NCBI GenBank assembly: GCA_028697345.1
Contig: JAQVFF010000001.1
Coordinates: 1-37,059 of the forward strand
Reading direction: 5' to 3'
Length of the DNA stretch: 37,059 bases
Source of the DNA: Candidatus Shapirobacteria bacterium
GTDB taxonomy: Bacteria; Patescibacteriota; Microgenomatia; 0-14-0-10-38-17
Shown here: one piece after another, positions 5,817 to 24,916 of the stretch
Numbering within the stretch: the first letter of the stretch is position 1
Layout: every line of letters starts with the position of its first letter
Program-made: the position numbers and the translations under genes
Notes under the pieces: model-generated
The model's database searches: none
Seen by the model: the letters and a program-made list of their open reading frames with translations, nothing else
What the model was told of the DNA's origin: nothing

Positions 5817-5850
5817 CAAAACAAACACTTTATATTAAAATAAAAAAGAA

Positions 5851-6198
5851 ATGATCAAAAAAGGCTCTTTGTTGGCACAAACAGTTAGTTTACCTGATTA
5901 CTCCGATATCACCGGAATCGAAAGCAATGCTCCTATTAGGGGTTGGACCAACATCGGCCAAATCGTATCTTCGGCGCTTACTTATGTCTTTCCTATTGCC
6001 GGCATTTTAGTTTTTATTTACCTTATTTATGGGGGGATAAATCTTATGATCGCTATTGGCAACGAAGAAGGCATTAGGGAAGGTAAAGCCAAAATCACCA
6101 ATGCCTTGATTGGGTTTGTTATTATTTTTGTTGCCTACTGGATAGTCCAAGCCTTGGAAATAGTTTTGGGTGTTACCTTGCTCGACTGGGGTACTTAA
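5851..6198 (+). CDS. TrbC/VirB2-like T4SS pilin paralog 1
   Basis: 115 aa. Shows the helix / charged loop / helix core shared by the array (..IYLIYGGINLMIAIGNEEGIREGKAKITNALIGFVIIF..). Confidence 0.8.
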   Translation: MIKKGSLLAQTVSLPDYSDITGIESNAPIRGWTNIGQIVSSALTYVFPIAGILVFIYLIYGGINLMIAIGNEEGIREGKAKITNALIGFVIIFVAYWIVQALEIVLGVTLLDWGT

Positions 6199-6233
6199 TT
6201 TCAAAATAACTAAAAAAATAATAATCTAAACTA

Positions 6234-6569
6234 ATGAATCACGATAATATATTGGCTGTTGACATTGGGACAGATTTCAAAATTACTCCAAACATGGGAA
6301 TTGGAGAAGCTAATCAATTTAGATCTATCGGCGGCCTCATTTCAACCGTTTTGCCTAATGTTTATCTCTTGGCCGGTCTGATATTGTTGTTCTTCTTGAT
6401 TTTCGGCGGTTTGGCAGTTATATTGGGAGCAGGAAAGGGTAATCAAGAACAGGTTGAAAAAGGCAAAAAAGTTTTAACCGGCACCCTAATTGGGTTTTTG
6501 GTTGTTTTTGCCAGTTTTTGGGTTGTTCAAATTTTAGGAATTATTACCGGAGTAAAAATCTTTAATTAA
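6234..6569 (+). CDS. TrbC/VirB2-like T4SS pilin paralog 2
   Basis: 111 aa. Core ..FLIFGGLAVILGAGKGNQEQVEKGKKVLTGTLIGFLVVF... Confidence 0.8.
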   Translation: MNHDNILAVDIGTDFKITPNMGIGEANQFRSIGGLISTVLPNVYLLAGLILLFFLIFGGLAVILGAGKGNQEQVEKGKKVLTGTLIGFLVVFASFWVVQILGIITGVKIFN

Positions 6570-6584
6570 ACTAAAAATAAAAAA

Positions 6585-6929
6585 ATGAACATTCTACAGG
6601 TTGTTGGTACAATTCAACCTCCTAGTCAAATCACCCCAATAGAAGAGGGAGGCTTAGGTAGTTTCTTAAAAAATATTTTTATTCTTTTGATTGTCGGGGC
6701 GGGGATATTTGCTCTTTTTAATTTCATCCGAGCCGGTTACGCCTATATGGGTGCCAAAGACGATAAAGAAAAAATTAAAGAAGCTACTGCCATGATTATT
6801 AATAGTATTATTGGTCTACTGATTGTTGCCTCTGCTTTTGTAATTGCCGCCCTGGTTGGCCAATTGTTCTTTGGCCGTTGGGATTTTATTATCAGGCCGA
6901 CAATTTTGGGACCAGGAGCATCAGAATAG
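6585..6929 (+). CDS. TrbC/VirB2-like T4SS pilin paralog 3
   Basis: 114 aa. Core ..FNFIRAGYAYMGAKDDKEKIKEATAMIINSIIGLLIV... C-terminal tail ..FIIRPTILGPGAS. Confidence 0.8.
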   Translation: MNILQVVGTIQPPSQITPIEEGGLGSFLKNIFILLIVGAGIFALFNFIRAGYAYMGAKDDKEKIKEATAMIINSIIGLLIVASAFVIAALVGQLFFGRWDFIIRPTILGPGASE

Positions 6930-6948
6930 TTAATGTAAAATTATTTTT

Positions 6949-7314
6949 ATGAGATTTTTTATCAATAAAGTTTTCGCCCAAACTCAAATAGGAGATTTTT
7001 CAGAAGGACCATGGATAGTTCCAAGAGGAAACGATCTTGGTGGCCAAATAGCCGACATTGTTTCCGTTGTTATTGGTATTTTAACGGTTCTGGCTATTAT
7101 TTGGTTTATTATTGAATTCGTTGTTTCCGGCTATATGTTAATTAGTTCTACCGGAGACCAAGAAAAAACCGCTGAAGCCAAAAAAAGACTAACTCAGTCA
7201 CTTATCGGCTTGGTTATTGTTCTTAGCGCTATCGTCCTAATTAATGTCATTGCCTACATTTTCAATATTGATTTCTTAAATATTGGTGAATATCTTAACA
7301 ACTTAAGTTTTTAA
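6949..7314 (+). CDS. TrbC/VirB2-like T4SS pilin paralog 4
   Basis: 121 aa. Core ..FVVSGYMLISSTGDQEKTAEAKKRLTQSLIGLVIVL... Confidence 0.8.
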   Translation: MRFFINKVFAQTQIGDFSEGPWIVPRGNDLGGQIADIVSVVIGILTVLAIIWFIIEFVVSGYMLISSTGDQEKTAEAKKRLTQSLIGLVIVLSAIVLINVIAYIFNIDFLNIGEYLNNLSF

Positions 7315-7319
7315 AAAAC

Positions 7320-7697
7320 ATGGCCATCTTAACTTTAATTGCCGATCGGATCCAAAATCCACTTCTTCCTGATCAAGTATCGACTATGGACCAAACCCCG
7401 GCCATACTTAGCCAAACCTTAAGCAATGTTTTGACCCTGCTATTAATCGGTGCCGGAGTAGCTTTTTTTTTCATGTTTGTTGCCGGAGGATTAAGATGGA
7501 TTTTATCAGCCGGAGATAAAGAAAAAGTTGAAGGAGCCAAAAAGCAAATTTCTTCGGCCATAATCGGTTTAGTATTAATCTTGCTGGTCTTTGCTGTTGT
7601 CAGTTTAATTAGAACTCTTTTTGGCATCAATTTAGTGAGGTTTAACTTGCCCAGATTATTTAGTGGACCAAGTAGACTTGTTTTTGTGACCCTGTAA
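7320..7697 (+). CDS. TrbC/VirB2-like T4SS pilin paralog 5
   Basis: 125 aa. Core ..FFFMFVAGGLRWILSAGDKEKVEGAKKQISSAIIGLVLIL... Closest paralog of the next gene. Contains a T9 run at 7463-7471. Confidence 0.8.
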   Translation: MAILTLIADRIQNPLLPDQVSTMDQTPAILSQTLSNVLTLLLIGAGVAFFFMFVAGGLRWILSAGDKEKVEGAKKQISSAIIGLVLILLVFAVVSLIRTLFGINLVRFNLPRLFSGPSRLVFVTL

Positions 7698-7832
7698 CGG
7701 GCAGATGGACAGGATCAGGTTGTGTCCCAGGACAAGCAGGAGCAAACTGTCAATAATAAATATCACTTAGTTTAAAAATTAGATTCTTAGTATTTTTTAT
7801 ATTAAAATAAAGAAAGAAGGGAGGTGAAAGAA

Positions 7833-8213
7833 ATGAATAATGTTTTAAATAGGGTTGGTTCGGCTATACTGGGAGTTGTTTACGCCCAAGAAATCGCCAT
7901 TCAACCGCCAGACAGTGCTGGGACCCTAAACACCATTACTGTTGAAAATTTAATTTCCGGAACCATCACTTTAGTTTTCATTGCCGCTTCCTTGGTTTTT
8001 TTCTTTATGCTAGTGGCTGGAGGCATTAAGTGGATGATGGCCGGAGGCGATAAAGAAAAAGCCGGCGAAGCTCGAAGCCAATTAACTTCAGCTCTAATTG
8101 GTTTGATTGTTATCTTTCTGGCTTGGGCCATTTCTAAATTATTAGAAACCTTGTTTGGTGTTAATATTTTGGGAGGGTTCAGAATTCCTAATTTTTTTGG
8201 TCCAGCTTCTTAA
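7833..8213 (+). CDS. TrbC/VirB2-like T4SS pilin paralog 6
   Basis: The track starts at GTG 7824. ATG 7833 sits about 10 nt after a strong SD (AAGGGAGG, 7815-7822). Core ..FFFMLVAGGIKWMMAGGDKEKAGEARSQLTSALIGLIVIF... Confidence 0.8.
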   Translation: MNNVLNRVGSAILGVVYAQEIAIQPPDSAGTLNTITVENLISGTITLVFIAASLVFFFMLVAGGIKWMMAGGDKEKAGEARSQLTSALIGLIVIFLAWAISKLLETLFGVNILGGFRIPNFFGPAS

Positions 8214-8221
8214 AATAAGAT

Positions 8222-8548
8222 ATGACCCTTACCAGTTTTTTAACAGGTGTTAGCGTTTTGGCTCAAGATGATAGTGATGTTCATCAGATTCAAGACATTG
8301 AAGAAATAGTTAGTCGGCTTTTAGGACTTGTTGTTCCGTTTGTTGGAATACTCTTGTTGTTAATGTTAATCGCCGGGGGTTTTCAATATATTACCTCCGG
8401 CGGAGAAACGGAACAGGCTCAAAAAGCCAAAAAAACTTTAACTTATGCCTTTTTTGGCCTAGTAGTAGTTTTGGGTGCTTGGTTAATAATTAGACTATTA
8501 GAGGAATTCACGGGACTTAACCTAACAACCTTCCAAATCCCTCGTTAA
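8222..8548 (+). CDS. TrbC/VirB2-like T4SS pilin paralog 7
   Basis: 108 aa. Core ..LMLIAGGFQYITSGGETEQAQKAKKTLTYAFFGLVVVL... Confidence 0.8.
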   Translation: MTLTSFLTGVSVLAQDDSDVHQIQDIEEIVSRLLGLVVPFVGILLLLMLIAGGFQYITSGGETEQAQKAKKTLTYAFFGLVVVLGAWLIIRLLEEFTGLNLTTFQIPR

Positions 8549-8621
8549 GATTTTGCTCTTCTTGCCTCAAGAGGTTATTTTTGCTAAATTGAATTTAAGG
8601 TCTTGTGTAACTAGTCAAAAA

Positions 8622-10982
8622 ATGAAAAAAAAGTTCTCTTTTGTTTTTCCGTTGGTGCTTGTTTTTATTTTTTTATGTTCCCCTAGCCCTAGCCATGCCC
8701 AACAAGGTTTCGGTTTTAATATTCATGGTCTGGCTAAAGAGTCTGAAGATTTCATTAGTTGTACTTTGGATTGGCTGGGACAAAATTGTAATACTACTAT
8801 CGTCAGGCTTTGGGGCTACCAAAGCACTTTTAGTATAAATGGTGTTAATAACCTCCAAAAAGTTTTAGATGCCGCTCCGGCTAATATAAAATTTATTGTT
8901 GCTCTGGAAGATTTTCCTTTTGGACCTGCTGTTAGCAATTCTGGAAACTGGTTTTCCTCCGGATATAGAAGTCAATACCGAAATTATGTTCAGACAATCG
9001 TTAACAAATATAAAAATGATGATCGAATTTTGGTTTGGGAAATTATGAACGAACCTCATTGCAAGGGAGATTCGAGTTGTTTGGGAGCGCTTTATAATTT
9101 CATGTACGATATGGCCGGATTAATTAAATCCATTGATCCTTCGACCCATGTTTCTCCGGGTTTAATGGGCGGAGAAATACCTTGGTCAGAATACAACAGA
9201 ATCAATAACATTCCGGCAATTACCGCCACCTCGTGTCACTACAATGCCGATACCAACAATGTCAGCACTTGTTTGGAAGCAACAAATTACAAGGGAAATG
9301 TTAGCTTTTTTTATGTCGGGGAAGCAGGTTATTTGGGAAACGCTAATTGTTCCGGCGGCGGTTGCACTAATGATGATTGTACTAACTGTTGCGACTTAGC
9401 CAGTCTTCAGCAACGCGCCAATCAAATTAATCAAGACAGAAATACTCTCCTTGGGTCAGGAGCAAACGCTTTTTTAGTTTGGCAATTTTCTCCACCAAGG
9501 AACCCTCTTTTAATCTGTGATCGATTTTCTGTTTTTCCTTCAGACCCAGTCTGTCAAGGACAACAGCCGTTTACCTGCAGTCCTTCATCAAGCAGGGGAA
9601 TGGTTATTTCCGGTTCCAGAAATATTTGTGCCGATCTTGAAATAACTAAAACCGATAAGCAAGAGGCCACTTCTACCCCAATTACTGGCGGGACCTCCTG
9701 GGGAAAAAAGGCAGTGGCGGCGACTATCATACTTGATGATGCAAAATTTCCCGATTTTAACAGATTCCAACAATCAATGTCTCTTGGTTTAAACAAGCTT
9801 TTACCTCAAGAACTAGCCCAAAACATCAGCTTGGCTGGTGATGTTGAATTAAAATTCAAACATATTCCTTTATCCTTTAATGAAGACGGCACTCCTGTTC
9901 AGGAATATTCTGAATGTGAAGATCTTCCCAGGGGTCCGGCACAATTATCCGCTAACCTTTGGGGGAGACTAACCTCTTTAAGGGGTCTTTGCGGCTTTTT
10001 GGGAACCTGTGACCCTGTTGCCGATTTTCAATTTCAGCTGGAAGAAACACAATATCCCGGCTGTGATTATATTGCCAGCTGTGAACCGGCAGACCGGAAC
10101 TTGGCCGACAAAAATCTATCCATACCAGAACCAGAAGAGACAACATTCAGTTTTCTTGCTTGGTTTAAGAGAATAATATCGTATATCGAAGACCTTATTT
10201 CTAGAATAGGAAAAAAAACCACTGAAGATGAGGTTAGGGTACTGGTTCTTAGCCGCAGTAACCTTCCCGGAGCCTCGGTTTTAGCTGATTCTTCCAAATT
10301 TTTACAAAAATCCTTGTTTGAGGAAACAGTGGAACTGATTAGATCAAGAGGGGGGACCCAAGCTTTAAATGATGATTTTGACTATACTTTTGCCCTTAGT
10401 CCGGAAAGCAATATTCAAGAACAAGGCCGTTTTTATGGAATTGAACCCATGTGGAAAAACTATTGTCTTCATCTTTGCGGCAGTCTTCCCGAGGGAACAA
10501 TTCAAACCTTGGGCGACCAAATTTGTCCTTCTTGTAATCCCGAAGATTACAAAACTCCCAGTAGGCCCATACCAAAACCGGATAATTTGCCAGACGGATG
10601 CCACTGGGACCCTTATGTTGGCGGTTGCGACTACTACGACTGTGTTGTCGGAGAAACATTATCAGACGGAACAATCTGTCAACGAAGCTGTGAATTAGAC
10701 CCAATATGCGAAAGCGGACTTTGTACTAGAAACAAACTTTATACCAAACCCTATCTTCCTAACGGAACCTACTGCCCGAATAAATACTGCCAGCCGGGAG
10801 AGTGTTATTGGCTCCATTTTAGACACCCTAGCAGTTACTACTATCCCGACCAGGGTCTGCCGGAATCAAGTTATCCTTGGGGTCCCTGGTATACCAAGAA
10901 CCCCGATGTCTGCACCCGAGGCAACAATGTAGGCTGTAACCCGGATTGTTGCCTGGGATCAAGAACGGAACAATATGATTAA
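8622..10982 (+). CDS. secreted glycoside hydrolase family 5 (clan GH-A, mannanase/cellulase-like) with a C-terminal Cys-rich region of about 450 aa
   Basis: The track starts at TTG 8553. ATG 8622 gives the signal peptide MKKKFSFVFPLVLVFIFLCSPSPSHA/QQ. GH5 blocks: ..TTIVRLWGY.., acid/base ..LVWEIMNEPHC.., nucleophile candidate ..FFYVGEAGY... The rest of the protein is dense in Cys (..CHWDPYVGGCDYYDCVVGE..CQRSCELDPICESGLC..GCNPDCCLGS). Confidence 0.8.
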   Translation: MKKKFSFVFPLVLVFIFLCSPSPSHAQQGFGFNIHGLAKESEDFISCTLDWLGQNCNTTIVRLWGYQSTFSINGVNNLQKVLDAAPANIKFIVALEDFPFGPAVSNSGNWFSSGYRSQYRNYVQTIVNKYKNDDRILVWEIMNEPHCKGDSSCLGALYNFMYDMAGLIKSIDPSTHVSPGLMGGEIPWSEYNRINNIPAITATSCHYNADTNNVSTCLEATNYKGNVSFFYVGEAGYLGNANCSGGGCTNDDCTNCCDLASLQQRANQINQDRNTLLGSGANAFLVWQFSPPRNPLLICDRFSVFPSDPVCQGQQPFTCSPSSSRGMVISGSRNICADLEITKTDKQEATSTPITGGTSWGKKAVAATIILDDAKFPDFNRFQQSMSLGLNKLLPQELAQNISLAGDVELKFKHIPLSFNEDGTPVQEYSECEDLPRGPAQLSANLWGRLTSLRGLCGFLGTCDPVADFQFQLEETQYPGCDYIASCEPADRNLADKNLSIPEPEETTFSFLAWFKRIISYIEDLISRIGKKTTEDEVRVLVLSRSNLPGASVLADSSKFLQKSLFEETVELIRSRGGTQALNDDFDYTFALSPESNIQEQGRFYGIEPMWKNYCLHLCGSLPEGTIQTLGDQICPSCNPEDYKTPSRPIPKPDNLPDGCHWDPYVGGCDYYDCVVGETLSDGTICQRSCELDPICESGLCTRNKLYTKPYLPNGTYCPNKYCQPGECYWLHFRHPSSYYYPDQGLPESSYPWGPWYTKNPDVCTRGNNVGCNPDCCLGSRTEQYD

Positions 10983-11030
10983 CTCTCTCATTTGTTGACA
11001 AACAAAATAAAAACTTTTATTCTTAAACTA

Positions 11031-12521
11031 ATGAAAAGACAACTTCTTTTAGTTACCTTATTTATTTTTGCTTTTTGCTTCTTATTTGTCCGCAACGCTC
11101 AGGCTCTTGTTTCTGGAACAGATCTTGAGACAGAATTAGAATCCAGTAATTGGCAACTTGGCAGTCATACTTTTGGTACTGTAACCAGAATTACCGACTC
11201 TTTAAGTATTTTGATTGCTGGAAGCAGTAGCAACGAAACAGTTAACCAAGCGGTTGGATCGGGAGCAATTCAAGCAACCGGCAACCTAATTGCCGCCCTA
11301 TACTCTCATCCTCCAGCTTCATCGATAGAATATTTTGCTGACCTTGGAAGAAGTCTAGATATTATTAAGCCTACTTATGCCCAAGGAATAGGCTTTAACG
11401 GTCTAAGACCGATTTTAAGTCTTTGGAAAAATTTCCGCAACATTGCTTATTTTTTCTTTATCCTGGTATTTATTATCCTTGGTTTTGCTATTATGTTCCG
11501 ATTAAAAATTAACCCCCAAATGGTCGTTACTATTCAAGCGGCAATTCCTAAGGTTATTACTGCCCTAATTTTGGTAACATTTTCTTACGCTATTGCCGGA
11601 CTATTAATCGATCTAATGTATCTGGTAACAGCAATTGGAATATCGGCAATCGGAGGCGGAGATCTTTTCCTAGAAGGTGTTTTACAGTTCTTACAAGACT
11701 TAGGAATCTCACCAGGGGGAATAGAAAATCTAAATATGTTGACCTTTTCTTTTTTCTTTTGGGGAAGAGCCAGTAGTAGTATTAATCAAATTTCACAAAT
11801 GTTCACTCCTGCTTCTCTTATTGCTAGCATTCTTGGAATACAAATACCGCAAGCTGTTGAACAGATTTTATCAGTCTTTCCTACCATCCCTTGGTTAAAT
11901 CCCGTAGGATCCATTCTTAGGTTAGTATTATCCATAATAATACTTTTTATCTTTTTTAAAATCTTTATAAGCCTCATTCTTTGCTACATTAGAATTCTAC
12001 TATTAATAATAACCGCTCCGCTACAGTTGATGATGGGGGCAATACCGGGCTTTAATACTTTAGGTAAATGGATAAAGGAATTAGTCGTTAACCTTTTACC
12101 TTTCTCGGTTATTGTAATTTTAATTTCCCTAACCGGTGTAATTTTAAATGCCGTGGCCGGAAATTATCAAAACTTCTGGATGCCGCCAGTAATTAGACAT
12201 CCCCTTGCCAGCGCTGACACTATTGGGGCCATAATTTCATTCGGCATTCTCTTGCTATTAGCCAGGGTTCCTGACATAATCAGAAATATGTTTGAACAAA
12301 AACCATTTGAATATGGAACAGCAATCGGACAGGCGTTGGGAGCACCGGCAGCACTTGGCGGGAAAGCAATTAGGAGCGTAGCCCAAACTGCAGAATCCAT
12401 TAGTGATGCCACAGGACCACAGGGTTGGGCAAAAAGAACCTTGGGTCATTTCAGATCTGATGGTAAGAAAGAAGAGCCTCCTGCTAAGCCTGGAAATCTC
12501 GAAAGTATCAAATCAACCTAG
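11031..12521 (+). CDS. polytopic membrane protein, VirB6/TrbL-like T4SS channel component (assigned from architecture and context)
   Basis: The track starts at TTG 10992. ATG 11031 gives the signal peptide MKRQLLLVTLFIFAFCFLFVRNAQA/LV. It has an exported N-domain of about 100 aa, at least 6 long hydrophobic helices and a hydrophilic C-tail. Its size and position match VirB6-type proteins of Gram-positive T4SS loci. Confidence 0.55.
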   Translation: MKRQLLLVTLFIFAFCFLFVRNAQALVSGTDLETELESSNWQLGSHTFGTVTRITDSLSILIAGSSSNETVNQAVGSGAIQATGNLIAALYSHPPASSIEYFADLGRSLDIIKPTYAQGIGFNGLRPILSLWKNFRNIAYFFFILVFIILGFAIMFRLKINPQMVVTIQAAIPKVITALILVTFSYAIAGLLIDLMYLVTAIGISAIGGGDLFLEGVLQFLQDLGISPGGIENLNMLTFSFFFWGRASSSINQISQMFTPASLIASILGIQIPQAVEQILSVFPTIPWLNPVGSILRLVLSIIILFIFFKIFISLILCYIRILLLIITAPLQLMMGAIPGFNTLGKWIKELVVNLLPFSVIVILISLTGVILNAVAGNYQNFWMPPVIRHPLASADTIGAIISFGILLLLARVPDIIRNMFEQKPFEYGTAIGQALGAPAALGGKAIRSVAQTAESISDATGPQGWAKRTLGHFRSDGKKEEPPAKPGNLESIKST

Positions 12522-12536
12522 GGTTTTTTATCACAG

Positions 12537-14639
12537 CTATTTAATATTTCTTCCTATTGCCACAAAGACATCCCAAAGATAACCAAGACTGTTTAACAAT
12601 AACATCTGTCTTATTTCTTCCTTGTCTCTCCCAGAGGCAAAAAGAATTTCTGCTGCCTGATGAAGTTCTAACTCTGCTCCATACTTGTTATCTTTAAAGG
12701 CAAAATTCGTTCTACTACCGGAAAGCTCCCTTATAAAACCACTACTAGCATCAAGCTTTGGTCCCCAAATAAAAGTTTCCGCATTTAAGAAAGGTCTAGT
12801 CTCTTCAATTCCATGGCCCAAAAAAATCAAAGCTTTCTCTCTAAATCCTGGCTTCAACCTCTCCATCGTAATAGCAAACGCTTTAATATTAATAATCCTG
12901 GCCATCATAGCCGCAACTACATGTTTTGACTCTCGCGGATGATCCTCGGATTGTCCACCATAAACCTGATCCAATAATTCTGCAATTTCTTTCAGTCCAG
13001 AACAAGATTCTTGATCCCATTTAGGAACGCCATCTGCCCTAGAACCACCAAGAAACTTCCAAAGAGCAGCACTCCATCTAGAATAAGCTTTTAAGTCAAT
13101 TGTAGCAGAAGCTTCTAGGGGTTTTATCCTTGGATCTTCTTGAACTACACTAAAAATATCATCAGGACGAAAGGCTTTATCTATTTTGTCAAAAATAAAC
13201 TCATCTTCCGGACTAAGTCTGCCAGAATAAACACCTTTTATTCTCTTGGGGAGAAAAGAAGGTTCCAGGATTGCTCTAAAAGGATCTCCGCCCCAAGCCG
13301 CACTTGGCTTAAAGCCTGTTTTTTCTATTTGTCCTTCTTTATTTATTCTGTATTCCCATTTTGTGAAACTATCAACTAAAAAAAGATCGCAGGCTAATTT
13401 TGCTGCTCCCCATCTTTCTGCTCTACTGAACCCATTCTTTTCGTTTTCCATTAAGACTTCTTCAATATAGCTATTAATTCCACCTCTATACCTACCATCG
13501 TCGTCACTAACTAGATAATAGGCTAGACTAGCCTTATCAAAAACGCCTTTTCCTTGTTCATAAAAAATTGATTTATCAATCTCACCATCCCAATTGAACA
13601 CCCCGCTCTCTTCATCCCAAGCGCTATTTATTCCTACACTACTCATCAAAGTTTGATAATATTTCCTAACCAGCTTATTCTCTAATAATGTTCTTATTTT
13701 GCTTCTGTCTCCGTGTAGCAAGAACCTGGTCCAATCATCTTTTCTTTCTAAATTAGGGTGTTCTGGGTTTTCTGGATTGGTCATATAGCCAACATATAGT
13801 TCTGCTGAACCATTTGATTGTTCCATTGCTCTAGCAGAAGCACAAATTGCCATCGCTGATCTTATCTTTTTCTCAAACTCTTTCTTCATTTCAGTGGTAA
13901 TGAAACCAGAGTCATCACCCTCAATGCTTTCATTGGCTCTTCTTACTGCCAAATTAAAATCTGCCATCCAGGCCTCAACTATCACCTTCCACTTTCTTTC
14001 CGGATCAAAAATAACCTCTTCGCTCATCGCTGCTTCTGTGTTGCGTAAAAGCCACTCTTCTCTGTCTCTTTCTTTTCTAACATCAAGAATGTGGTTTACT
14101 ACTTCACCTTTTTCGTTTTTTTCAATAATTGCTCCCGATCTAATATCTCCCTCAAAAGACCCAAGAGAAAAAACCGCTCCCAAATAGGGAGGAAGATTTT
14201 GTCCCATCAGAAACTCTCTTCTTCTGATCAACAAGTCCTCAGATGTTTGTTCTGCTAGTTGTTCAATCTCTTCAAAAATAATCTCCTTAAGAATCCGTGC
14301 TTGCTTTTCTACCTGATCATAGTCCTCTTTTGTTATTAATCCATCTTCAACTTTTTCTAGCTTCTTGCCAAGCCAATCATTAATATTCCTGTGACCATCA
14401 AGAAGGGTTTCGGAAGAAATAAGGGGATCATTAGAAATCCTTTCTGCTGTTCCTTTTAGATATGTGTTGATTAGTATTGGGGGTTGTTCTTCTTGTTGGC
14501 CAGTTTCTGAATTTAACCCCGCCTGAGGTTTAATCAACTCAATAAGCTTATCTCTAAAAGAGACTGCCTGTTGTGCTTTCCCTTCTGGTTGTAGAATTTT
14601 TTCTTGTTCTGGTCCGGGCATATCGCCTCCTTCTGTCAT
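12537..14639 (-). CDS. 700-aa soluble orphan protein, no recognisable domain, antisense to the surrounding T4SS-like genes
   Basis: Uninterrupted 700-codon ORF. Strong SD (AAGGAGG, reverse complement of 14648-14654) 8 nt before ATG 14639. No TM, signal peptide, Walker or relaxase motifs seen. CpG-poor compared with its neighbours on sampled lines. Confidence 0.8.
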   Translation of the reverse strand: MTEGGDMPGPEQEKILQPEGKAQQAVSFRDKLIELIKPQAGLNSETGQQEEQPPILINTYLKGTAERISNDPLISSETLLDGHRNINDWLGKKLEKVEDGLITKEDYDQVEKQARILKEIIFEEIEQLAEQTSEDLLIRRREFLMGQNLPPYLGAVFSLGSFEGDIRSGAIIEKNEKGEVVNHILDVRKERDREEWLLRNTEAAMSEEVIFDPERKWKVIVEAWMADFNLAVRRANESIEGDDSGFITTEMKKEFEKKIRSAMAICASARAMEQSNGSAELYVGYMTNPENPEHPNLERKDDWTRFLLHGDRSKIRTLLENKLVRKYYQTLMSSVGINSAWDEESGVFNWDGEIDKSIFYEQGKGVFDKASLAYYLVSDDDGRYRGGINSYIEEVLMENEKNGFSRAERWGAAKLACDLFLVDSFTKWEYRINKEGQIEKTGFKPSAAWGGDPFRAILEPSFLPKRIKGVYSGRLSPEDEFIFDKIDKAFRPDDIFSVVQEDPRIKPLEASATIDLKAYSRWSAALWKFLGGSRADGVPKWDQESCSGLKEIAELLDQVYGGQSEDHPRESKHVVAAMMARIINIKAFAITMERLKPGFREKALIFLGHGIEETRPFLNAETFIWGPKLDASSGFIRELSGSRTNFAFKDNKYGAELELHQAAEILFASGRDKEEIRQMLLLNSLGYLWDVFVAIGRNIK

Positions 14640-14794
14640 TTGCTATTCCTCCTTAAGAACTATTATTACAAAAAGGAAGAGAAATAGTCAACTAAATTAA
14701 TAATAGTTACTATTATAAGATACTTTGTTTATTTTTGCCAATATCTTTAATAATCTTGCGCCAATTTGTGGTTTGTTGTAAGCTAGAAAAAGAA

Positions 14795-14826
14795 ATTGTC
14801 AAATTGTTGCATTGTTTAATTGTTAT
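14795..14826. repeat. left arm: four tandem 8-bp units ATTGTCAA ATTGTTGC ATTGTTTA ATTGTTAT, overlapping the start codon of the four-helix-bundle gene
   Basis: Read directly: ATTGT recurs at 14795, 14803, 14811 and 14819, an exact 8-bp period. It is the inverted complement of the 15189-15220 array. Confidence 0.75.
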
Positions 14827-15199
14827 GAAAAAATATTTGCAATTAAACGATATAAAAGCCTACCAAACTGCTTTTTGCCTGTCGAATTACGTTTGGAACC
14901 TTGTTATGAAATGGAAATTATTTGAAAAAAATACCATCGGAAACCAATTCACAAGGTCTGTTGATTCTATTTCCGCTAATATTGCCGAAGGTTTTGGTAG
15001 ATACTCTAAGCGAGACAAAATTAAATTTTATTATTATAGTCAAGGGTCAGTTAAAGAATCTTTAGATTGGAATGAAAAAGCCAAAATAAGGAAGCTTCTC
15101 AAGAAAGAAGAGTACCAACATATTCTACAAGAATTATGTAACTTGCCAAAAGAATTAAATTATTTAATAAGCTTCACCGATAAAAAATTAACAATATAA
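14825..15199 (+). CDS. four-helix-bundle protein (23S rRNA intervening-sequence protein / Avd-like family, PF05635-type)
   Basis: The track starts at TTG 14735. ATG 14825 gives a 124-aa protein, MKKYLQLNDIKAYQTAFCLSNYVWNLV...SVDSISANIAEGFGRYSKRDKIKFYYYSQGSVKESLDW.., the characteristic family signature. Confidence 0.85.
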   Translation: MKKYLQLNDIKAYQTAFCLSNYVWNLVMKWKLFEKNTIGNQFTRSVDSISANIAEGFGRYSKRDKIKFYYYSQGSVKESLDWNEKAKIRKLLKKEEYQHILQELCNLPKELNYLISFTDKKLTI

Positions 15200-15220: not shown

Positions 15221-15227
15221 CGTTCCT

Positions 15228-16079
15228 ATGAACCAACACCCTATTCCACAACACATTTCTTCTTACCAGTTTCGTCTGATAGGGGAGATGACTCTGGAAC
15301 AATTTGGCAAGGTTGCCGGCGGGTGTATTATCGCCCTGGTTTTTTACGCCCTACCCTTGCCAGGCTTTGTTAAATGGTTTTTGATCATTCTATCGGCCTC
15401 TTCTGGAGCCTTATTTGCCTTTGTCCCAGTTGAGGGCCGACCCTTGGAAACTTGGATTATTTCTTTTATTAAATCAATTTATTCACCAACCGAATATGTT
15501 TGGGAAAAGTCACCGGTTGATTTTTTCTTTACTAGAACCGATGACGATTTTTCTAAAAAAGAGATTTTACCCCAAAAGGAAACTGCCCGATCTTTGTCAG
15601 TAAAAGAACTGGCCCTCTTACAAGCATTGTCGGAACAAAAAGATTTTTACAGCCAAGATGAACTAAACCATGCTCAAGCACTGTTAGGGCTTTTTCAACA
15701 AACCACCGCTTCAGGAAAAAGCCCAATCAGTAAACAACCGGTAAAGCCAGAAGCGGCTCAAAAAGAGGCTAGTTTCAAAGAAAATCTGCCTTTTCCCAGC
15801 ACTCCAGATCAGCCAAATATTTTGGTCGGCATGGTAATCGATAAAAACGGCAAAATTTCTGAAGGGGCGATCGTGGAAATCAAAGATCAGGGCGGTAATA
15901 CTGTCCGGGCAATGCGAACCAACAAATTAGGCCAATTCCGATCTGTTTCACCTTTGCCCGATGGCCAATATCAAATCAGCACTGAAAAAACCGGTCTTAA
16001 TTTTGATATAATGAAAATCCAGTTAAAGGGTGAAATTGTTCCTCCAGTTGAAATTAGAGAAACTGGACTAATCAATTAA
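15228..16079 (+). CDS. PrgI-family (VirB3-like) T4SS membrane protein with a C-terminal carboxypeptidase-regulatory-like beta-sandwich
   Basis: 283 aa. N-terminus ..SSYQFRLIGEMTLEQFGKVAGGCIIALVFYALPLPGFVKWFLIILSASSGALFAFVPVEGRPLETWIISFIK.. matches the PrgI pattern. C-terminus ..GMVIDKNGKISEGAIVEIKDQGGNTVRAMRTNKLGQFRSVSPLPDGQYQIS... Confidence 0.7.
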   Translation: MNQHPIPQHISSYQFRLIGEMTLEQFGKVAGGCIIALVFYALPLPGFVKWFLIILSASSGALFAFVPVEGRPLETWIISFIKSIYSPTEYVWEKSPVDFFFTRTDDDFSKKEILPQKETARSLSVKELALLQALSEQKDFYSQDELNHAQALLGLFQQTTASGKSPISKQPVKPEAAQKEASFKENLPFPSTPDQPNILVGMVIDKNGKISEGAIVEIKDQGGNTVRAMRTNKLGQFRSVSPLPDGQYQISTEKTGLNFDIMKIQLKGEIVPPVEIRETGLIN

Positions 16080-16175
16080 AATATAAATAATAAATTCTAA
16101 ATTTCAACAAACTTAAGCAAATCAAAAATTGAACAAAAAATTAATAATTTTTAAAAATTAGAAACTTTACAAATT

Positions 16176-16880
16176 ATGCCTGCCGTTCCAATCCGTTCTT
16201 CTACACAAGATGCTCTACCCATAGAAGATATCCGCGATGATTTGGTTGTCTTAAAAGACGGTTCTGCCGCTTTAATTCTTCAGGTCAACGCCATTAATTT
16301 CAGCTTATTATCAGAAAAAGAACAAGATGCAATCATCTATGCTTATGCGGGCCTGCTTAATTCTCTTAATTTTTCCATTCAAATCATTATCCGCTCTCAA
16401 AAAAAAGATATTACCGGCTATTTATCTCTACTGGAAAAAGCTAAAGCTGGTCAAAATAATTCGTTATTAAAAGATCTAATTAATAAATATCAAGCTTTTA
16501 TTAGAGAAACGGTTACCCAAACAGAAATTTTAGATAAAAAGTTTTATCTGGCGATTCCTTTCTCGGCCCTAGAGTTAGGCACTGGTCAGGTTGCTTCAAG
16601 TGTCTTAGATCAATTCTTACCTGGTAAAAAAAAGACTAAAACAACCCTCAACTTTGACCGGGTGGTAGAAAAAGCCAAAACCAGTCTAGAACCCAAAAGA
16701 GACCACTTAATCCGATTACTTGGTCGAATTGGACTAGTTGCCCAACAATTAACTACCAATGAATTAATTCGACTTTTCTTTAGAGTTTACAACCCTGACG
16801 CCAAAATTGTTGACCATGCCCTAACCAAAGAATATACCAGTCCGATTATTAAAGATGATGATTCTATCCAAAAAAAATGA
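16176..16880 (+). CDS. stand-alone VirB4 N-terminal-domain-like protein (no ATPase domain)
   Basis: 234 aa. ..STQDALPIEDIRDDLVVLKDGSAALILQVNAINFSLLSEKEQDAIIYAYAGLLNSLNFSIQIIIRS.. resembles the N-terminal block of Gram-positive VirB4 proteins (Tn916 Orf16 / ICEBs1 ConE type), from memory. Its stop overlaps the VirB4 start (ATGA, 16877-16880). Confidence 0.5.
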   Translation: MPAVPIRSSTQDALPIEDIRDDLVVLKDGSAALILQVNAINFSLLSEKEQDAIIYAYAGLLNSLNFSIQIIIRSQKKDITGYLSLLEKAKAGQNNSLLKDLINKYQAFIRETVTQTEILDKKFYLAIPFSALELGTGQVASSVLDQFLPGKKKTKTTLNFDRVVEKAKTSLEPKRDHLIRLLGRIGLVAQQLTTNELIRLFFRVYNPDAKIVDHALTKEYTSPIIKDDDSIQKK

Positions 16881-18895
16881 TTAGTCTTCCTAAGGTTTTC
16901 AGTAAAAAAAACCAACCTGAAAAAACAGTACCCGCTAAAGGCAGCCAAGAACAACGAACCCTGGGTGATGGAGTATTGGTGATTAAGGACTTACTAGCCC
17001 CGTCAGCTATCGAGGTCGATTTCAACCACCTAAGAATTGATAATAAATATTTCCGCTCGTTGTTCGTGGCTGGCTACCCCCGATTTGTTAATGCTAATTG
17101 GTTGTCACCTCTGATCAACTTTGATCACACCATGGATTTGGCAATGTTTATTTATCCGGTAGAAATCAAAGGAACTCTAGATGATTTAAGAAGAAAAATT
17201 GCTGAAATGGAGGCTGAGATTGCCACCGACATTCAGCGAGGCAAGGTGGTTGACCCTTCAACTAAGGCAAAATTAGAAGATGCCCTTTCTCTTCAGGAGC
17301 AATTAACCAAGGGGGTAGAGCGATTTTTCCAGTTTGGCCTTTACTTAACTATTCCCGGCAACAGCGTTAAGGAGCTGGACGAGACCACCAAGGAAATTAA
17401 ATCAACCCTGGGATCACTAATGATCATCGCCAAAGATGCTACCCTGCAGATGGAAGAAGGCTTTCAAACCACTCTGCCAATAGGAGACAGCAAGCTCAAT
17501 ATCACTAGAAACATGGATACTACTTCACTGGCAACTACTTTTCCTTTTACCTCATCAGAACTGACTGCCAATGAAGGCATTTTATACGGCATTAACCAAC
17601 ATAACGGCTCTTTGGTTATTTTTGACCGGTTTAACTTGGAAAACGCTAATTCGGTTGTTTTTGGTAAATCCGGCTCCGGTAAAAGCTATATGATTAAACT
17701 GGAAGCCTTGCGATCACTAATGATGGGTACAGAAATAATTATTATCGATCCGGAAAACGAATATGAAAAATTAGCCGAAGCGGTTAGTGGAGAATATATC
17801 AGCTTCGGTTTTGGTTCCAGCGCCAAAATTAATCCTTTTGATCTACCGCAAAAATATACTGACCAGAACCAAACTCTCCAAGAAAACCATTTAGGATTCA
17901 AGTTATTATCTCTTCAGTCGCTTTTTAAAATTATGATGGGAAAAATGGATTCTGATGAAGAAGCAATATTGGATCGGGCGCTGGTAGCTACTTATAAAGG
18001 CAAGGGAATTACTCCCGATCCGGCCAGCCAAAAAAATGAAGCCCCCTTGTTAGAAGATCTTTACAAAACCCTTCTGGGCATGGAAACGGCCAAAGCCCAA
18101 ACCTTATCTAACCGACTGGAAAAATTTGTTAAGGGTTCACTGGTGGGAATTTTTGATCAACGCTCTAATGTTAATCTTAAAAATCCCTTTACTGTTTTTT
18201 CCTTAAAAAATGTTGAAGGTTCATTGCGGCCCATTGTAATGTTTATTATCTTGGATTATATCTGGACCAAGGTTCAAGACGATCTTAAAAAGAGAGTGGT
18301 TATTGTTGATGAAGCCTGGTATTTAATGCGTTATAAAGATTCTGCCCAATACTTAGAATCAATTGCCAAGCGAGCCAGGAAATATTACTTAGGCCTAACT
18401 ACCATCACTCAAGATGCTCCCGACTTCTTAGCCTCGCCTTACGGCAAATCAATCATTACTAATTCTTCTATTCAAATTCTAATGAAACAGCACCCGGCAG
18501 CGATTGACCAGATTGGAGAAATTTTTTACCTTTCTCAAGGTGAAAAAAATCTTTTGCTTTCGGCTGATATTGGTGAAGGATTATTTTTTGCCGGAGAAAA
18601 CCATGTTGCTATTCAAGTAATCTCTTCAAACGAGGAACATAAACTGGTCAGCACTGACCCAAGAGAAAAAACAGCTAAACTCAAGGTTCCGGAAGAGGGT
18701 AACAAAACTGTTCAGACCCAATATCAGACACAAATTAAACCAGAACAATCCCAAAACCAAAACCCGCCTAACCAACCAAGCAAAAGCACTCTTGGCGCTA
18801 ATGCTCCCAAACCGGATAGTCAAACAGCTAACAATACCGAATTTGTTGAAAATGAAACCCAACCCCCAATTAAAATTAACACCAATCTCGAATAG
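16877..18895 (+). CDS. virB4: VirB4-family T4SS ATPase
   Basis: 672 aa. N-domain ..LLAPSAIEVDFNHLRIDNKYFRSLFVAGYPRFVNANWLSPLINFDHTMDLAMFIYP... Walker A VVFGKSGSGKSY. Walker B RVVIVDEAW. Ends in a Q/N/P-rich low-complexity tail of about 70 aa. Confidence 0.9.
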   Translation: MISLPKVFSKKNQPEKTVPAKGSQEQRTLGDGVLVIKDLLAPSAIEVDFNHLRIDNKYFRSLFVAGYPRFVNANWLSPLINFDHTMDLAMFIYPVEIKGTLDDLRRKIAEMEAEIATDIQRGKVVDPSTKAKLEDALSLQEQLTKGVERFFQFGLYLTIPGNSVKELDETTKEIKSTLGSLMIIAKDATLQMEEGFQTTLPIGDSKLNITRNMDTTSLATTFPFTSSELTANEGILYGINQHNGSLVIFDRFNLENANSVVFGKSGSGKSYMIKLEALRSLMMGTEIIIIDPENEYEKLAEAVSGEYISFGFGSSAKINPFDLPQKYTDQNQTLQENHLGFKLLSLQSLFKIMMGKMDSDEEAILDRALVATYKGKGITPDPASQKNEAPLLEDLYKTLLGMETAKAQTLSNRLEKFVKGSLVGIFDQRSNVNLKNPFTVFSLKNVEGSLRPIVMFIILDYIWTKVQDDLKKRVVIVDEAWYLMRYKDSAQYLESIAKRARKYYLGLTTITQDAPDFLASPYGKSIITNSSIQILMKQHPAAIDQIGEIFYLSQGEKNLLLSADIGEGLFFAGENHVAIQVISSNEEHKLVSTDPREKTAKLKVPEEGNKTVQTQYQTQIKPEQSQNQNPPNQPSKSTLGANAPKPDSQTANNTEFVENETQPPIKINTNLE

Positions 18896-18906
18896 GCAAT
18901 TAAAAC

Positions 18907-21900
18907 ATGGCTGAAGCAAAAAAACTGATTTTGTCAAAGGAGTCAGCACAATTTATCCTTGAGGGCCTAAACTTCTTTAAAAAAAATCCCCAAGCCAAAG
19001 AGTGGCACAAACTAGATAAAGACACTTTTTTAGTTTTAGCCCGTGACGTTGCTCAATTTTACCCTGATAAAGAAGAAAGTTTGGAAGAATATTTGCTTCG
19101 TTTTGAATCTTTCTTGAGAAGAATTATTAATAGTCAGGAACTGGCCCCATCTATTCCTGAAAACCTGAACCAACTAGTTGAAGCTTTTGAGGCCTTCCAA
19201 AAAGAGCAAGACGCTGATATCAATTTGAAAAAAACTGCTATTGTTACCAGCCAGGATGTTAGCTTGGAAGACTGGATTAAAAACTTACAAGAGAAGCATC
19301 TGGCCCAAAGAATAGCAAAGGAAGTTGAAGAGGCGGTTGCTCCCATCGGTCTCCCCGAGGAACAAAAAGAGACAGTCAAAGAAACTTTAACCCAGGAAAT
19401 TACCGCTTCTGTTCCTATGGTGGTTATTACCAGGCCAGAACAAGAAAAATCAATAAAAGAAAAAATAAGTCGTGCTTTTGAAAAAGAAAAAACGACCGTT
19501 GTTTCGTCAACAAAACAGGCCTTAGTCAATCAACAATTACAAGAACTTGCTGATCGAGCCAGGTTTTTGACTGTCCCAATCGCCGTTAAAACTCAACCAT
19601 CACCAACACAAAAAACCCTTGAGGAAACAATTGCTAAAGTTCTTCGACAGCAAACCCCAATCAAAGAAGAGGCCGCTGTTCAAAAAGTCGCCCAGGCAAT
19701 TACTCAAGTAATCAGCCAAAAAGTACCCAAGTTAGATAAATCAGAACAGGCGGGTTTATCTGCACTAGAAAAATTTGCCCTAGTCGAAAACACGATTAAT
19801 GCTTCACTGCCAGAAATTGTTCAGGCCTTAACTAACCCTGAAATCACCAGCCTGCCAATAGAAAAAACAACCATTAATCCTCAAGACGGTCAGGAATTCT
19901 TGCAATTATTAACCGGCCAAATTAACCAACCGGTTCTTGATTTGTCCTCGTCGCTTAAAGAAGATTTAAACCGGACCAGGCAACAAAAGGTATCTTTTCT
20001 AAGACCTGAAACAAAAATCATTTTTGACCAACTGGAAGAAAATCCACTATTACCTTATCAGCTTATTCCCCAAGAAGAACTTCAGCCGCTAGGAAACCAA
20101 ATAAGGGCTGTTGTCAATTACCGCGGTATCAGTCCAGGGTCGGCGGAAATTATTCAATATCAAAACGAGGAGGCGGCTGGTTTAAGGTCCGCTATAGAAG
20201 GAAAAACCAGTTTTTGGTGGCAAAATCAAACAAACCGTTTTCAGGCTCAAGGGGCAGAAGAGGCAATTATCACGCAAACTACCAAAAGATTTAATCTCCA
20301 ATTGCATTTTGAAGAAAAATTTCCCCAATTTAAGAATTTCTATCAACAGGCTTTCAGTTGGTCCGGACCGCGAAAATGGTTTAATCAAGTTACCAGCCCT
20401 ATCGCCGGTTTAGTTAAAGAGAAAGTTGGTTCTTGGTGGCAAAAAACCGGTCTAGCTAAAAAGCTGGCCCAAAGAGCCGAATCAAAAGCAAGTCTTTTTT
20501 TCAAAAAAACCCTCGGTTCTTTTAGTATTTTTAAGGCTGGCGTTAAAAAAACTCTTCAAGAAGGAGCCAAAAAAGGTGTCACCAAGGCTATTTCTTGGCT
20601 GGCCACAAAATTAGCCGCCACAAAACTTGGAGCAATCTTGGGCTCTATTGCTCCGGGAATAGGTAATGCTATCGGGGCGGCGGTTGGTTTTGTGATTGAT
20701 GTTGGTCTTGGTCTAATTAGGGGAGGTTTTAGGTTGTTTTCCAATGTTTTGCAAAAAGTGTCCGGAGGCGAAACTGAAGCCGAAAAGACCATTAAGGCTA
20801 ATTTTGGACCCTTGGGTAAAATTGCTCTCTCTCCAATTACTTTAATTGTTATTGGTGTGCCAATATTGATTATTCTTTTGGCTTTAGGACTGTTCCAAAT
20901 CGAGGAAGGGGCTTTTGTTGTTGATGTTGCTGAGCATGCCGTTGTTTTTTATGGTTCTTGTTATGTTGAAGATATTCATCAAACTGATGTTATTACTGAT
21001 GAAAACTTGGCTATTTTTATAGCCAGAAATAAAGCCGCCTACCCTAATAGTTTAATCGAAGAAAAAATTCATCAGGTAATTGCTGAAAGTATTTCGGTCG
21101 GGTTTAATCCCGCATTGGCAATAGCAATTTGGGGCGAAGAAAGCCACTTTTCGGATTACTCTAATCCTAGGGTGGTTCCGGGAAGAGATTTTGGTTGCGG
21201 AGTTTATTGTTCTAGTAACCAACCAAGCAACTTTGATGAATCGTTGGCTTGCTTTGTCGCTAAACGCACCAGTTGTAATAGTGCCTGTCTTAGCAGGGCT
21301 ACTTTCGCAGAATTTATGGAATGCTATGGACCAGTTGCCGAAAATCCAAACTTTATCTCTAATACATTAAAATTTTATCAACAACTCGTTCCTTCGGGTC
21401 CAGGAGTAGTTGTTTGTCCAGGAGGAACCACTGGAGAGTTTGCTTCTCAGCTTCTTAACCACCTTATTGCCTGCTATGGCAATATCATTAATCGGGCAAG
21501 CTATAACGATCAGGGTGTTTGTTTACTTGGCCGAGGAGTTTCTCAATCAAGCGTGCAACATATTACCTGGTCTGTTGGTCAATTTAGCGCCCTTCAGTGT
21601 GTTGGCTTTGCCAAGGCTGTCGAAGTAGAAACCGGCGCTGGCAGCTTAGGTTTTGTTCGCGGAGCCTATGGTGATGCCGCCAATTATTATCGTCCTTTAA
21701 CAGGCTATCAACAAGTTCCCAAAAGCCAACAGAATGTGATGGTTGGAGATTTGGCCTTTTTCTCCGGGACTATTGGCCATGTTGGAGTTGTTGTTGATGT
21801 TGCTCCCGATATGTCCTGGTTTATAATCGCTCAAGCAATTGGTTACAGGAGCGGATCTGCTTACGGGTTAATAAACGAATCAGGAAGAATTCATATAACA

Positions 21901-24860: not shown

Positions 24861-24916
24861 TGACTTACTCCTTTAAAGGGCCTGCTGGAAAAGTTTCTGC
24901 CGTTTTTAATAAAAAT

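Follow-up and report, generated by a model that had tools for sequence, protein, structure and literature searches.

A polymorphic antisense gene at a fixed position in a Patescibacterial T4SS locus

The T4SS locus and its antisense gene

The window, i.e., the whole 37,059-nucleotide stretch of Candidatus Shapirobacteria DNA analysed here, carries a Patescibacterial MPF-FATA-derived T4SS locus with VirB4, PrgI/VirB3, a TrsD-like protein and a pilin array, near dnaA (24842-26263) and dnaN (26609-27721). On the plus strand lie a VirB2-like T4SS pilin array of eight PF18895 genes (5019..8548), a secreted GH5-like protein of 809 aa (8553..10982; Pfam Cellulase, 30 bits), which is 21–27% identical to most relatives, and a polytopic VirB6-like protein of 509 aa with several predicted TM segments and no Pfam match (10992..12521). 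Beyond the antisense gene considered here (P0001; 12537..14639, minus strand), the plus strand resumes with a 23S_rRNA_IVP four-helix-bundle gene recognized by Pfam (14735..15199) and then the conserved half of the locus (15228..21939): PrgI/VirB3-like (15228-16079; PF12666, 30.9 bits), the TrsD-like protein of 234 aa (16176-16880), the VirB4 ATPase (16877-18895; PF19044, 104.8 bits) and a CHAP cell-wall hydrolase assigned by Pfam (18907-21939). The TrsD-like protein scores 25.2 bits against TraC_F_IV, under the 28.1 cut-off, and is 43–88% identical to the protein which, in the relatives examined, precedes VirB4 or is joined to it. The cluster contains no relaxase or T4CP; the same genome (G000) has two T4CP-like ATPases, both on other contigs, at C5 10742-12856 and C31 4646-6988. 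No integrase, transposase or repeat boundary was seen among the ORFs of the window.

The antisense gene, hereafter the slot gene, encodes 700 aa from an ATG start and reads against the rest of the cluster, toward the 3' end of the VirB6-like gene. As an earlier note on this DNA had it, this is the sole credible minus-strand gene of the T4SS cluster between 5019 and 22803, the remaining minus-strand ORFs being frames of 102–131 aa nested within larger plus-strand genes. The note's 15-nt convergent gap is equally real, running stop to stop from the end of the VirB6-like gene to that of the slot gene (12522..12536), and no terminator-like hairpin was found in it. On the other side of the gene, the minus strand of 14640..14741 holds the consensus SD that the note had described (AAGGAGG, 8 nt, then the ATG) and two sigma-70-like hexamer pairs, at 14741-14712 (11/12) and 14691-14662 (10/12); this stretch is a putative divergent control region common to the slot gene and the IVP/PrgI side.

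Composition, constraint and protein architecture

The CpG depletion reported in the earlier note is real: its 2103 nt contain 35 CpG, a density of 1.0 per 60 nt compared with 1.2–3.3 in the other genes of the window, where two short ORFs are as low; the lines with 4–7 per 60 nt that the note used for comparison are, on the other hand, local peaks, and the contrast at the level of genes is about 2-fold. The observed/expected ratio is 0.48, whereas the window as a whole has 0.78 and the genome averages 0.87; across the 628-kb genome no other of the 255 ORFs with 300 aa or more is as low, and of the 444 ORFs with 150 aa or more only three are lower. By codon position, 1-2 is the most depleted (0.22), followed by 2-3 (0.60) and 3-1 (0.62). 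Arginine is encoded mainly by AGA/AGG, just as the note had deduced: the AGR:CGN count is 40:4 (91% AGR), set against 3004:4465 genome-wide, and the gene shares this tendency with the GH5-like (21:9) and VirB6-like (13:3) genes, the three forming a fast-diverging AGR-rich block. The GC content of the slot gene (0.388) equals the genome median, and its sense strand is loaded with purines both at replacement positions (0.62, the 99th percentile) and at four-fold sites (0.47 versus 0.35 +/- 0.06). The CpG/AGR oddity belongs to this wider enrichment of the sense strand in purines (A). As purine-rich, AGR-biased slot genes are also found in other genomes, the bias is a trait of slot genes rather than a mark of recent import; thus, even an anomaly as striking as the lowest CpG of a genome's longer ORFs with 91% AGR can characterize a class of genes and not foreignness. 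Replication-strand bias does not account for it, the window's four other minus-strand genes being unbiased (AGR:CGN 27:57), with four-fold-site purines of 0.31–0.39. Avoidance of restriction sites was considered too: TCGA occurs 0 times versus about 6.4 expected, which is not significant once the low CpG and the number of motifs tried are taken into account.

In two close pairs, dN/dS of the slot gene is 0.20 and 0.29, i.e., purifying selection, which indicates that each allele is functional and leaves no case for positive selection. The slot proteins of these pairs are 86% and 70% identical, against 50% and 53% for VirB6-like, and a secreted 900-aa protein, at 71% in the one close pair tested, likewise falls below the slot gene; therefore, the slot gene is not the fastest-changing member of the locus at short range. 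Between close strains, dS amounts to 1.7 for VirB6-like versus 0.37 for the slot gene.

The protein is soluble and Trp/Glu/Lys-rich, as had been noted (E 11%, K 7.3%, W 2.1%), acidic (net charge -26) and mostly alpha-helical. No TM segment or signal peptide is predicted in it, unlike the locus's exported proteins, which have predicted TM segments or signal peptides. Two modules can be distinguished. The N-terminal module, or N-module (14235..14639, minus strand; aa 1 to ~135), is helical, starts MTEGGDMPGPEQ and represents a conserved unit of ~130 aa that is specific to the window's family and present in a single copy per genome. The core of "body A" (12537..14198, minus strand; aa ~148-700, ~550 aa) includes the conserved motifs M-A-x-x-A-S-A-R-A-M-E and W-G-G-D-P-x-R-x-x-L-E-P-S-F-L-P, its conservation extending over profile positions 155-700 (94 matches below 1e-30). 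An AF2 model of a body-A protein reached a pLDDT of 87.2 and a pTM of 0.82, while one built from only 4 sequences was unusable (pLDDT 53). The note's statement that no motif could be placed holds against Pfam, NCBIfam, PADLOC, PDB sequences and Foldseek: the pTM 0.82 model found nothing significant in PDB and BFVD (best E 0.2–0.4, TM 0.1–0.17), TPR/RRNPP proteins included; neither an HTH nor any other DNA-binding domain appears in Pfam/NCBIfam; and there is no enzymatic or toxin motif in Pfam, NCBIfam or PADLOC. The weak, non-significant top Foldseek matches are alpha-solenoids. Matches of the body and the N-module to designed TIM barrels in PDB sequence profiles (E ~1e-3) were taken as spurious, with no domain stretch passing alone.

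The same position in related genomes

The gene is no orphan, as the earlier note had called it: a profile search recovers 122 homologue clusters at 50% identity. Comparison of gene order shows 12537-14639 (minus strand) to be this genome's allele of a slot gene which is polymorphic but fixed in position within the chromosomal, MPF-FATA-derived T4SS locus found in Patescibacteria. Wherever context exists, the slot gene converges on VirB6-like and diverges from PrgI-TrsD-VirB4 (L001, L002, L005, G001, G002, G025, G203, G234, G357, L019 and L020), and VirB6-like homologues adjoin it in 10 of 11 tested genomes; a related-locus search with a 14-sequence alignment yielded 4 loci only. Other families of the class supplied another 20 loci, of which 14 show VirB6-like on the plus strand, an antisense TM-free gene directly next to it and then PrgI-TrsD-VirB4, and one more is interrupted by a contig end; the antisense genes of those 14 are purine-rich, encode 590–1678 aa and mostly belong to unrelated sequence families. 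The convergence is tight elsewhere as well, ranging from a 4-nt overlap to 88 nt, and the divergent region between the slot gene and PrgI measures ~100–150 nt in loci with no inserted gene. The IVP gene that lies there in the window is present in G002, L005 and G357 and absent in G004.

BLAST leaves the proteins at this fixed position in at least 12 unlinked groups. Within the window's own genus, body A is found in G000 and G001, body B in G002 and G004 and another body in G003, even as VirB4 is 87–89% identical in the congeners G002-G004 (the VirB4 of G001 being left out) and TrsD 83–88% identical in congeners. Bodies A and B are not diverged homologues (hhalign probability 1.3%), and alignment places the N-module in front of non-homologous bodies A, B, C or D in relatives. 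It occurs in 8 of the 401 genomes of the class, namely G222 and all the f1-family members tested (G000-G005 and G007) except G006, which is 82% complete; in G000-G005 and G007 there is one copy each, always in the slot. The G005 N-module, attached to body B, shares 73% identity with its counterpart in P0003 (body A) and 66% with that in P0116 (body C), and has thus been shuffled between bodies. An MP(T/G)PEQ tag in the N-module was seen in slot-position ORFs only, with none among the 443 remaining ORFs of G000 or the ~320 remaining ORFs of the loci, the regex having been built from the same slot sequences on which it was scored. Body A itself occurs in 5 of 61 relatives and 7 of the 401 genomes of the class; many of its members have no N-module or bear other N-extensions, and those of the window's family that do have it form one clade (SH-aLRT 100). 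No C-terminal tail is conserved in common among bodies A, B and C, and a tblastn search of the entire G000 genome with bodies B, C and D and further slot proteins returned nothing beyond the slot gene, i.e., no silent cassettes or shufflon. As these sequence comparisons show, recombination has replaced the occupant of the slot by non-homologous bodies among closely related genomes.

The earlier note took the gene for horizontally acquired cargo or the remnant of an inserted element; on this reading it would merely hitch-hike in the locus. In codon and dinucleotide usage it stands apart from the rest of the genome, body A is patchy, and the IVP cassette adjoining it looks mobile. Yet its GC content is at the genome median, the slot is filled in nearly all loci examined and occupied in all relatives with context, some of them with other bodies, the N-module-bearing clade tracks the taxonomic family, the gene is under purifying selection and shares its bias with slot genes of other genomes, and neither integrase, transposase nor repeat boundaries were seen among the window's ORFs. 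The note had named flank-like composition and synteny across distant relatives as what would speak against a foreign origin: the composition does differ from the flanks, whereas the synteny is conserved, and it is this synteny that largely refutes the foreign reading, now highly improbable. What survives of the earlier interpretation is the exchange of alleles within the slot. An immunity factor, which the note had also suggested, has no support, since no partner toxin was recognized and the protein is a single-copy one of 700 aa.

Candidate roles and parallels with known systems

In the one species tested, the Patescibacterial T4SS is essential for epibiotic growth (PMC10633639). It has no relaxase, and the slot protein, being single-copy, soluble and polymorphic, is a concrete candidate for what it carries or for a channel partner that confers host specificity. 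The preferred reading, a plausible one, is that of a substrate or effector: with a probability of roughly 0.4, the slot protein would be a polymorphic protein dedicated to the T4SS, most likely cargo recruited through its N-module. Made in the cytoplasm as a soluble, acidic, helical protein of two modules (N-module and body A), it would be handled by the T4SS, the conserved N-module docking it on the conserved cytoplasmic part formed by VirB4/TrsD/PrgI or on a remote T4CP-like ATPase—the two encoded in G000 are possible recruiters—and the exchangeable body would act as a payload that reaches the surface or the interior of the host cell and suits the host type. The fixed position, the swapping of bodies within one genus despite closely similar VirB4, the confinement of a shuffled N-module to the slot, the predicted solubility set against the exported proteins of the locus, and the combination of constraint with a confident model all favor such a role. 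According to PMC10633639 and PMC12102498, moreover, the Patescibacterial T4SS, with no relaxase and T4CP nearby, is suspected of moving proteins. Against it, known T4SS signals are C-terminal and the conserved module here is N-terminal; there is one such gene per genome, which is not the fastest-changing at short range; many body-A members have other N-termini; neither an enzymatic or toxin motif nor an adjacent immunity-like gene is present; and body A is restricted to a few genomes of the class. A bolder version, in which slot proteins are the missing T4SS cargo, a recombining, fold-novel helical repertoire with N-terminal recruitment whose bodies set the exploitable host, is possible but doubtful.

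The main rival to cargo is a cytoplasmic partner of VirB6 that stays in the cell, e.g., an accessory or adaptor equivalent to the large hydrophilic helical domains of extended VirB6 proteins, detached from the fast-evolving VirB6-like channel and binding its cytoplasmic face, or an assembly platform or chaperone for VirB6-like; taken jointly, these variants deserve tentative consideration. The slot gene always stands tail-to-tail with VirB6-like, both belong to the variable block, the VirB6-like protein here is short (~500 aa) whereas S. epibionticum has extended ones and no antisense slot, and the slot protein is all-helical, with its weak top Foldseek matches among alpha-solenoids; those matches are, however, non-significant (E > 0.3, TM 0.1–0.17). 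Further, co-evolving partners drift together and are seldom swapped for non-homologues, as bodies A and B have been. The unequal dS of the two genes between close strains implies that they were not inherited there as one unit, and in L002 a body-A slot gene is paired with a VirB6-like protein matching that of G000 over 145 aa only. A regulatory role is unlikely: the protein might control the two T4SS operons at the divergent promoter, or convergent read-through might interfere with the pilin-VirB6 operon, in a layout comparable with prgX/prgQ of pCF10. The short divergent region, the gene's own promoter-like sites and the 15-nt convergent gap with no terminator-like site would suit this, but no DNA-binding domain emerges from Pfam and NCBIfam, a regulator of 590–1678 aa would be very large, the filling of one slot by unrelated bodies fits it poorly, and dN/dS of 0.2–0.3 indicates that the protein sequence itself matters.

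The chromosomal Patescibacterial T4SS, described for S. epibionticum (SEML1_0006-0019) by Wang et al. 2023 (PMC10633639) and surveyed by Quinonero-Coronel et al. 2025 (PMC12102498), is the same machine as that of the window. The VirB2-like array, VirB6-like, PrgI/VirB3, TrsD, VirB4 and a cell-wall hydrolase are common to the window and the Patescibacterial T4SS, as is a cluster with no relaxase or T4CP beside dnaA/dnaN. The portions of these two papers and of the 2025 nomenclature review (PMC12857230) that were consulted make no mention of any polymorphic gene running antisense from the PrgI side toward VirB6. The S. epibionticum locus has no such gene and instead encodes extended VirB6-like proteins, of which SEML1_0011 and SEML1_0013 (998 and 1088 aa) are essential and bear C-terminal ARM-repeat-like helical domains. 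Like the hydrophilic domains of these two, the slot protein is large, helical, hydrophilic and genetically tied to the VirB6 channel; unlike them, it is a separate opposite-strand ORF with no TM segment, no detectable similarity in sequence or fold, and a swapped body. Other extended VirB6 proteins are TraG of the F plasmid and RvhB6 of Rickettsia.

A parallel can also be drawn with the LXG toxins of the T7SS, polymorphic effectors delivered by a conserved N-terminal module, in that the helical ~130-aa N-module stays conserved across the different C-terminal bodies to which shuffling has joined it. The secretion systems differ in type, however, the slot bodies (~450–700 aa) have no recognizable toxin domain, and the N-module matches neither LXG nor any Pfam family. 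Of the features of polymorphic toxins, the slot protein displays a conserved N-terminus with alternative C-termini (bodies A, B, C and D) and not a toxin domain with a downstream immunity gene, what lies downstream being the convergent VirB6-like gene at 15 nt. CagA and the X-Tfe of Xanthomonas, with their C-terminal XVIPCD, are signature effectors encoded inside a T4SS island. The slot protein differs from them in having its conserved part at the N-terminus and in sharing no sequence similarity with them; like them, it is large, soluble, fold-novel and variable, and is encoded within the secretion locus.

Layout of the locus and conservation of the slot

The genome of the window (G000) measures 628 kb at 92% completeness, and the window, one entire 37-kb contig of it, carries dnaA (24842-26263) and dnaN (26609-27721). 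A replication origin is likely near 26.5 kb, because the cumulative GC skew of the window reaches its minimum there. Left of this putative origin lies a monoderm-type T4SS cluster, with eight pilin genes (PF18895; 5019-8548), a secreted GH5-like protein (8553-10982), a polytopic 509-aa VirB6-like protein (10992-12521; assigned by topology and position, with no Pfam match), the minus-strand gene studied here (the slot gene, 700 aa; 12537-14639), a 23S_rRNA_IVP four-helix-bundle gene (IVP; 14735-15199), and the PrgI/VirB3-like, TrsD-like and VirB4 genes together with a CHAP hydrolase (15228-21939). Given the skew minimum, replication meets the plus-strand T4SS genes within 1-26500 head-on and runs in the same direction as the slot gene.

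The sequence-level claims of an earlier note on the slot gene were all borne out: it opens with ATG, preceded at 8 nt by its own Shine-Dalgarno sequence AAGGAGG; its stop lies 15 nt from that of the VirB6-like gene; and no other ORF of the cluster is a credible minus-strand gene. Two promoter-like hexamer pairs lie upstream. The antisense gene goes unmentioned in the passages and term matches of two papers on Patescibacterial T4SSs (PMC10633639; PMC12102498) and of a 2025 nomenclature review (PMC12857230).

The gene has a dedicated, conserved position. All homologues of its core (body A, residues ~148-700) with genomic context converge on the VirB6-like gene and diverge from the IVP gene or PrgI. 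VirB4 occurs in 60 of 61 genomes of the class sample, and the region upstream of it was surveyed for 20 members of the class that belong to other families. Fourteen display the full pattern of a polytopic VirB6-like gene, an antisense gene free of TM segments (590-1678 aa, a few bases from the VirB6-like gene) and PrgI-TrsD-VirB4; one more shows it cut by a contig end, and five are organized differently. The earlier note proposed checking for the gene at the same position in relatives; an antisense slot gene stands there in the body-A loci and in 14 of the 20 others.

The slot region also accommodates extra genes in some loci: G003 and G007 (L042 6116-6967; L044 5308-6162) have a member of a soluble 283/284-aa family upstream of the slot gene, and G022 and G234 (L051 5071-7704; L046 3578-4804) have Walker-A ATPases of ~400 aa. 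In nine loci (L001, L002, L003, L004, L006, L016, L020, L069 and L070; equivalent to window 14640-15300), independently assembled contigs run out 186-664 bp upstream of where the slot gene starts, so the divergent promoter/IVP-cassette region seems to be a place where assemblies repeatedly break, through strain heterogeneity or repeats. Three TPA MAG records (L018, L019, L020) hold a Patescibacteria-type T4SS locus under the titles 'uncultured Gammaproteobacteria' or 'Atribacterota', which are probably wrong.

Base composition as a trait of the gene class

The CpG depletion reported earlier is real: with an observed/expected ratio of 0.48, where the genome averages 0.87, the gene ranks lowest among the 255 genome ORFs of at least 300 aa. 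Arginine is, as claimed, encoded mainly by AGA/AGG (40 AGR to 4 CGN codons, versus 3004:4465 genome-wide). The deficit is strongest at codon positions 1-2 (0.22), though also present at 2-3 and 3-1, and hence largely reflects arginine codon choice. It is one facet of a broader purine loading of the sense strand, mainly with A: purines make up 0.62 of replacement positions and, at four-fold sites, 0.47 (genome 0.35 +/- 0.06); GC content, at 0.388, is the exact genome median. Replication-strand bias was rejected as the cause, as neither a purine nor an AGR skew appears in the window's four other minus-strand genes. The tetranucleotide TCGA is absent from 12537-14639 against ~6.4 sites expected at the genome rate; the expectation falls to ~3 after allowing for CpG depletion, and the absence alone is not significant.

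Slot genes of the other-family loci are likewise purine-rich (0.53-0.65), and most use more AGR than their neighbors, as do the body-A homologues. The compositional oddity is therefore a trait of the gene class and no mark of import, contrary to the earlier reading of foreign acquisition.

Exchangeable bodies in a mosaic locus

The gene is no orphan, as had been supposed: a word-indexed search retrieved only three relatives (35-40% identity), and a profile run against 1.84 billion representative proteins yielded 122 homologue clusters, 94 of them below 1e-30, sharing a core of ~550 residues (profile positions 155-700) behind N-termini of varying length. That it has no placeable motif was upheld by Pfam, NCBIfam, PADLOC and PDB sequences, none of which matched. 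An AlphaFold2 model from a 71-sequence alignment predicts with confidence a mostly helical fold (pLDDT 87.2, pTM 0.82), for which the best Foldseek hit in PDB and BFVD had E = 0.2.

Slot proteins form at least 12 groups without BLAST links to each other, and body A, with carriers in 7 of 401 genomes of the class, is rare. Within the window's family they always open with a helical module of ~130 aa (N-module; M-x-E-G-E..M-P-T/G-P-E-Q..S-F-E-E-x-L-R-x-L-I-E-P); G000-G005 and G007 each encode a single copy of it, the one in the slot. It is joined to body A in G000, G001 and proteins P0002, P0003 and P0055, to body B in G002, G004, G005, G007 and P0107, to body C in P0112 and P0116, and to another (D) in G003. 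Bodies A and B show no detectable homology (hhalign probability 1.3%); G002-G004 belong to the genus of G000, with VirB4 87-89% identical to its own. The module of G005 (body B) is 73% identical to that of P0003 (body A) and 66% to that of P0116 (body C), so shuffling has moved the N-module from body to body. No silent slot-gene copies were found in the G000 genome. In the body-A tree, the module-bearing members fall into a single clade (SH-aLRT 100), whose branches are long; hence body A is inherited and fast-diverging within the family, and no fresh import.

A regex for an N-terminal MP..PE tag, derived from this family, matches only slot-position ORFs (0 of 443 other G000 ORFs; 0 of ~320 other locus ORFs), with two matches outside the family. 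One is a separate 224-aa ORF in G025 (L014 9139-9813), whose tag, MPDEIGKENMLTPEQ, resembles the start of the family N-module; it lies just upstream, on the same strand, of a body-A gene without the module (587 aa; L014 10065-11828), and the pair may be a split form of the two-module protein.

Between G000 and G002, the PrgI-TrsD-VirB4 half is conserved (75%, 88% and 89% protein identity), as compared with IVP at 90%, dnaA at 84% and the CHAP hydrolase at 60%. The block at 8553-14639 diverges fast: 21% for GH5-like, 38% for VirB6-like and 34% for the slot N-module, with the slot body replaced. This block is also AGR-rich (AGR:CGN 21:9, 13:3 and 40:4 for GH5-like, VirB6-like and slot genes), and PrgI, TrsD and VirB4 are CGN-rich (2:6, 3:7, 7:13). 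Between G025 and a near strain (L014 versus L069), the slot gene is 86% identical (dS 0.37), the VirB6-like gene 50% (dS 1.7) and a 900-aa secreted protein 71% (dS 0.92); a second close pair (L046 versus L070) gives 70% for the slot gene and 53% for VirB6-like. Slot alleles are replaced, and the dN/dS of 0.20 in the G025 pair places the protein under purifying selection. The several-fold spread of dS between adjacent genes in near strains indicates a T4SS locus shaped by mosaic recombination, in which VirB6-like turnover can outpace that of the slot gene.

Possible role of the slot protein

The slot protein is soluble, made in the cytoplasm and modular. Our tentative reading, at a probability of about 0.4, is that the T4SS machine handles it: through its conserved N-module it would dock either on one of two T4CP-like ATPases or on cytoplasmic parts of the apparatus that are themselves conserved, and the exchangeable body would go to the host. 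Both ATPases score above the TraG-D_C cut-off and have the Walker A motif GKTGTGKS; their genes lie well away from the T4SS locus in G000 (contig C5 10742-12856, minus strand; contig C31 4646-6988, plus strand).

A regulatory or transcription-interference role for the antisense gene is unlikely, and a hitch-hiking foreign gene, given the class-wide composition and the inheritance of body A, still more improbable; each ranks below both delivery and a partnership with VirB6. The latter, with the slot protein as a cytoplasmic partner of VirB6, is the main rival, conceivable though doubtful. The analogy would be with the hydrophilic, ARM-like domains found in S. epibionticum on two extended VirB6-like proteins that are essential; the T4SS locus of this species differs in having no antisense slot. 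Delivery of the exchangeable body, in turn, fits the suspicion voiced in passages of two papers that relaxase-less Patescibacterial T4SSs move protein (PMC10633639; PMC12102498).
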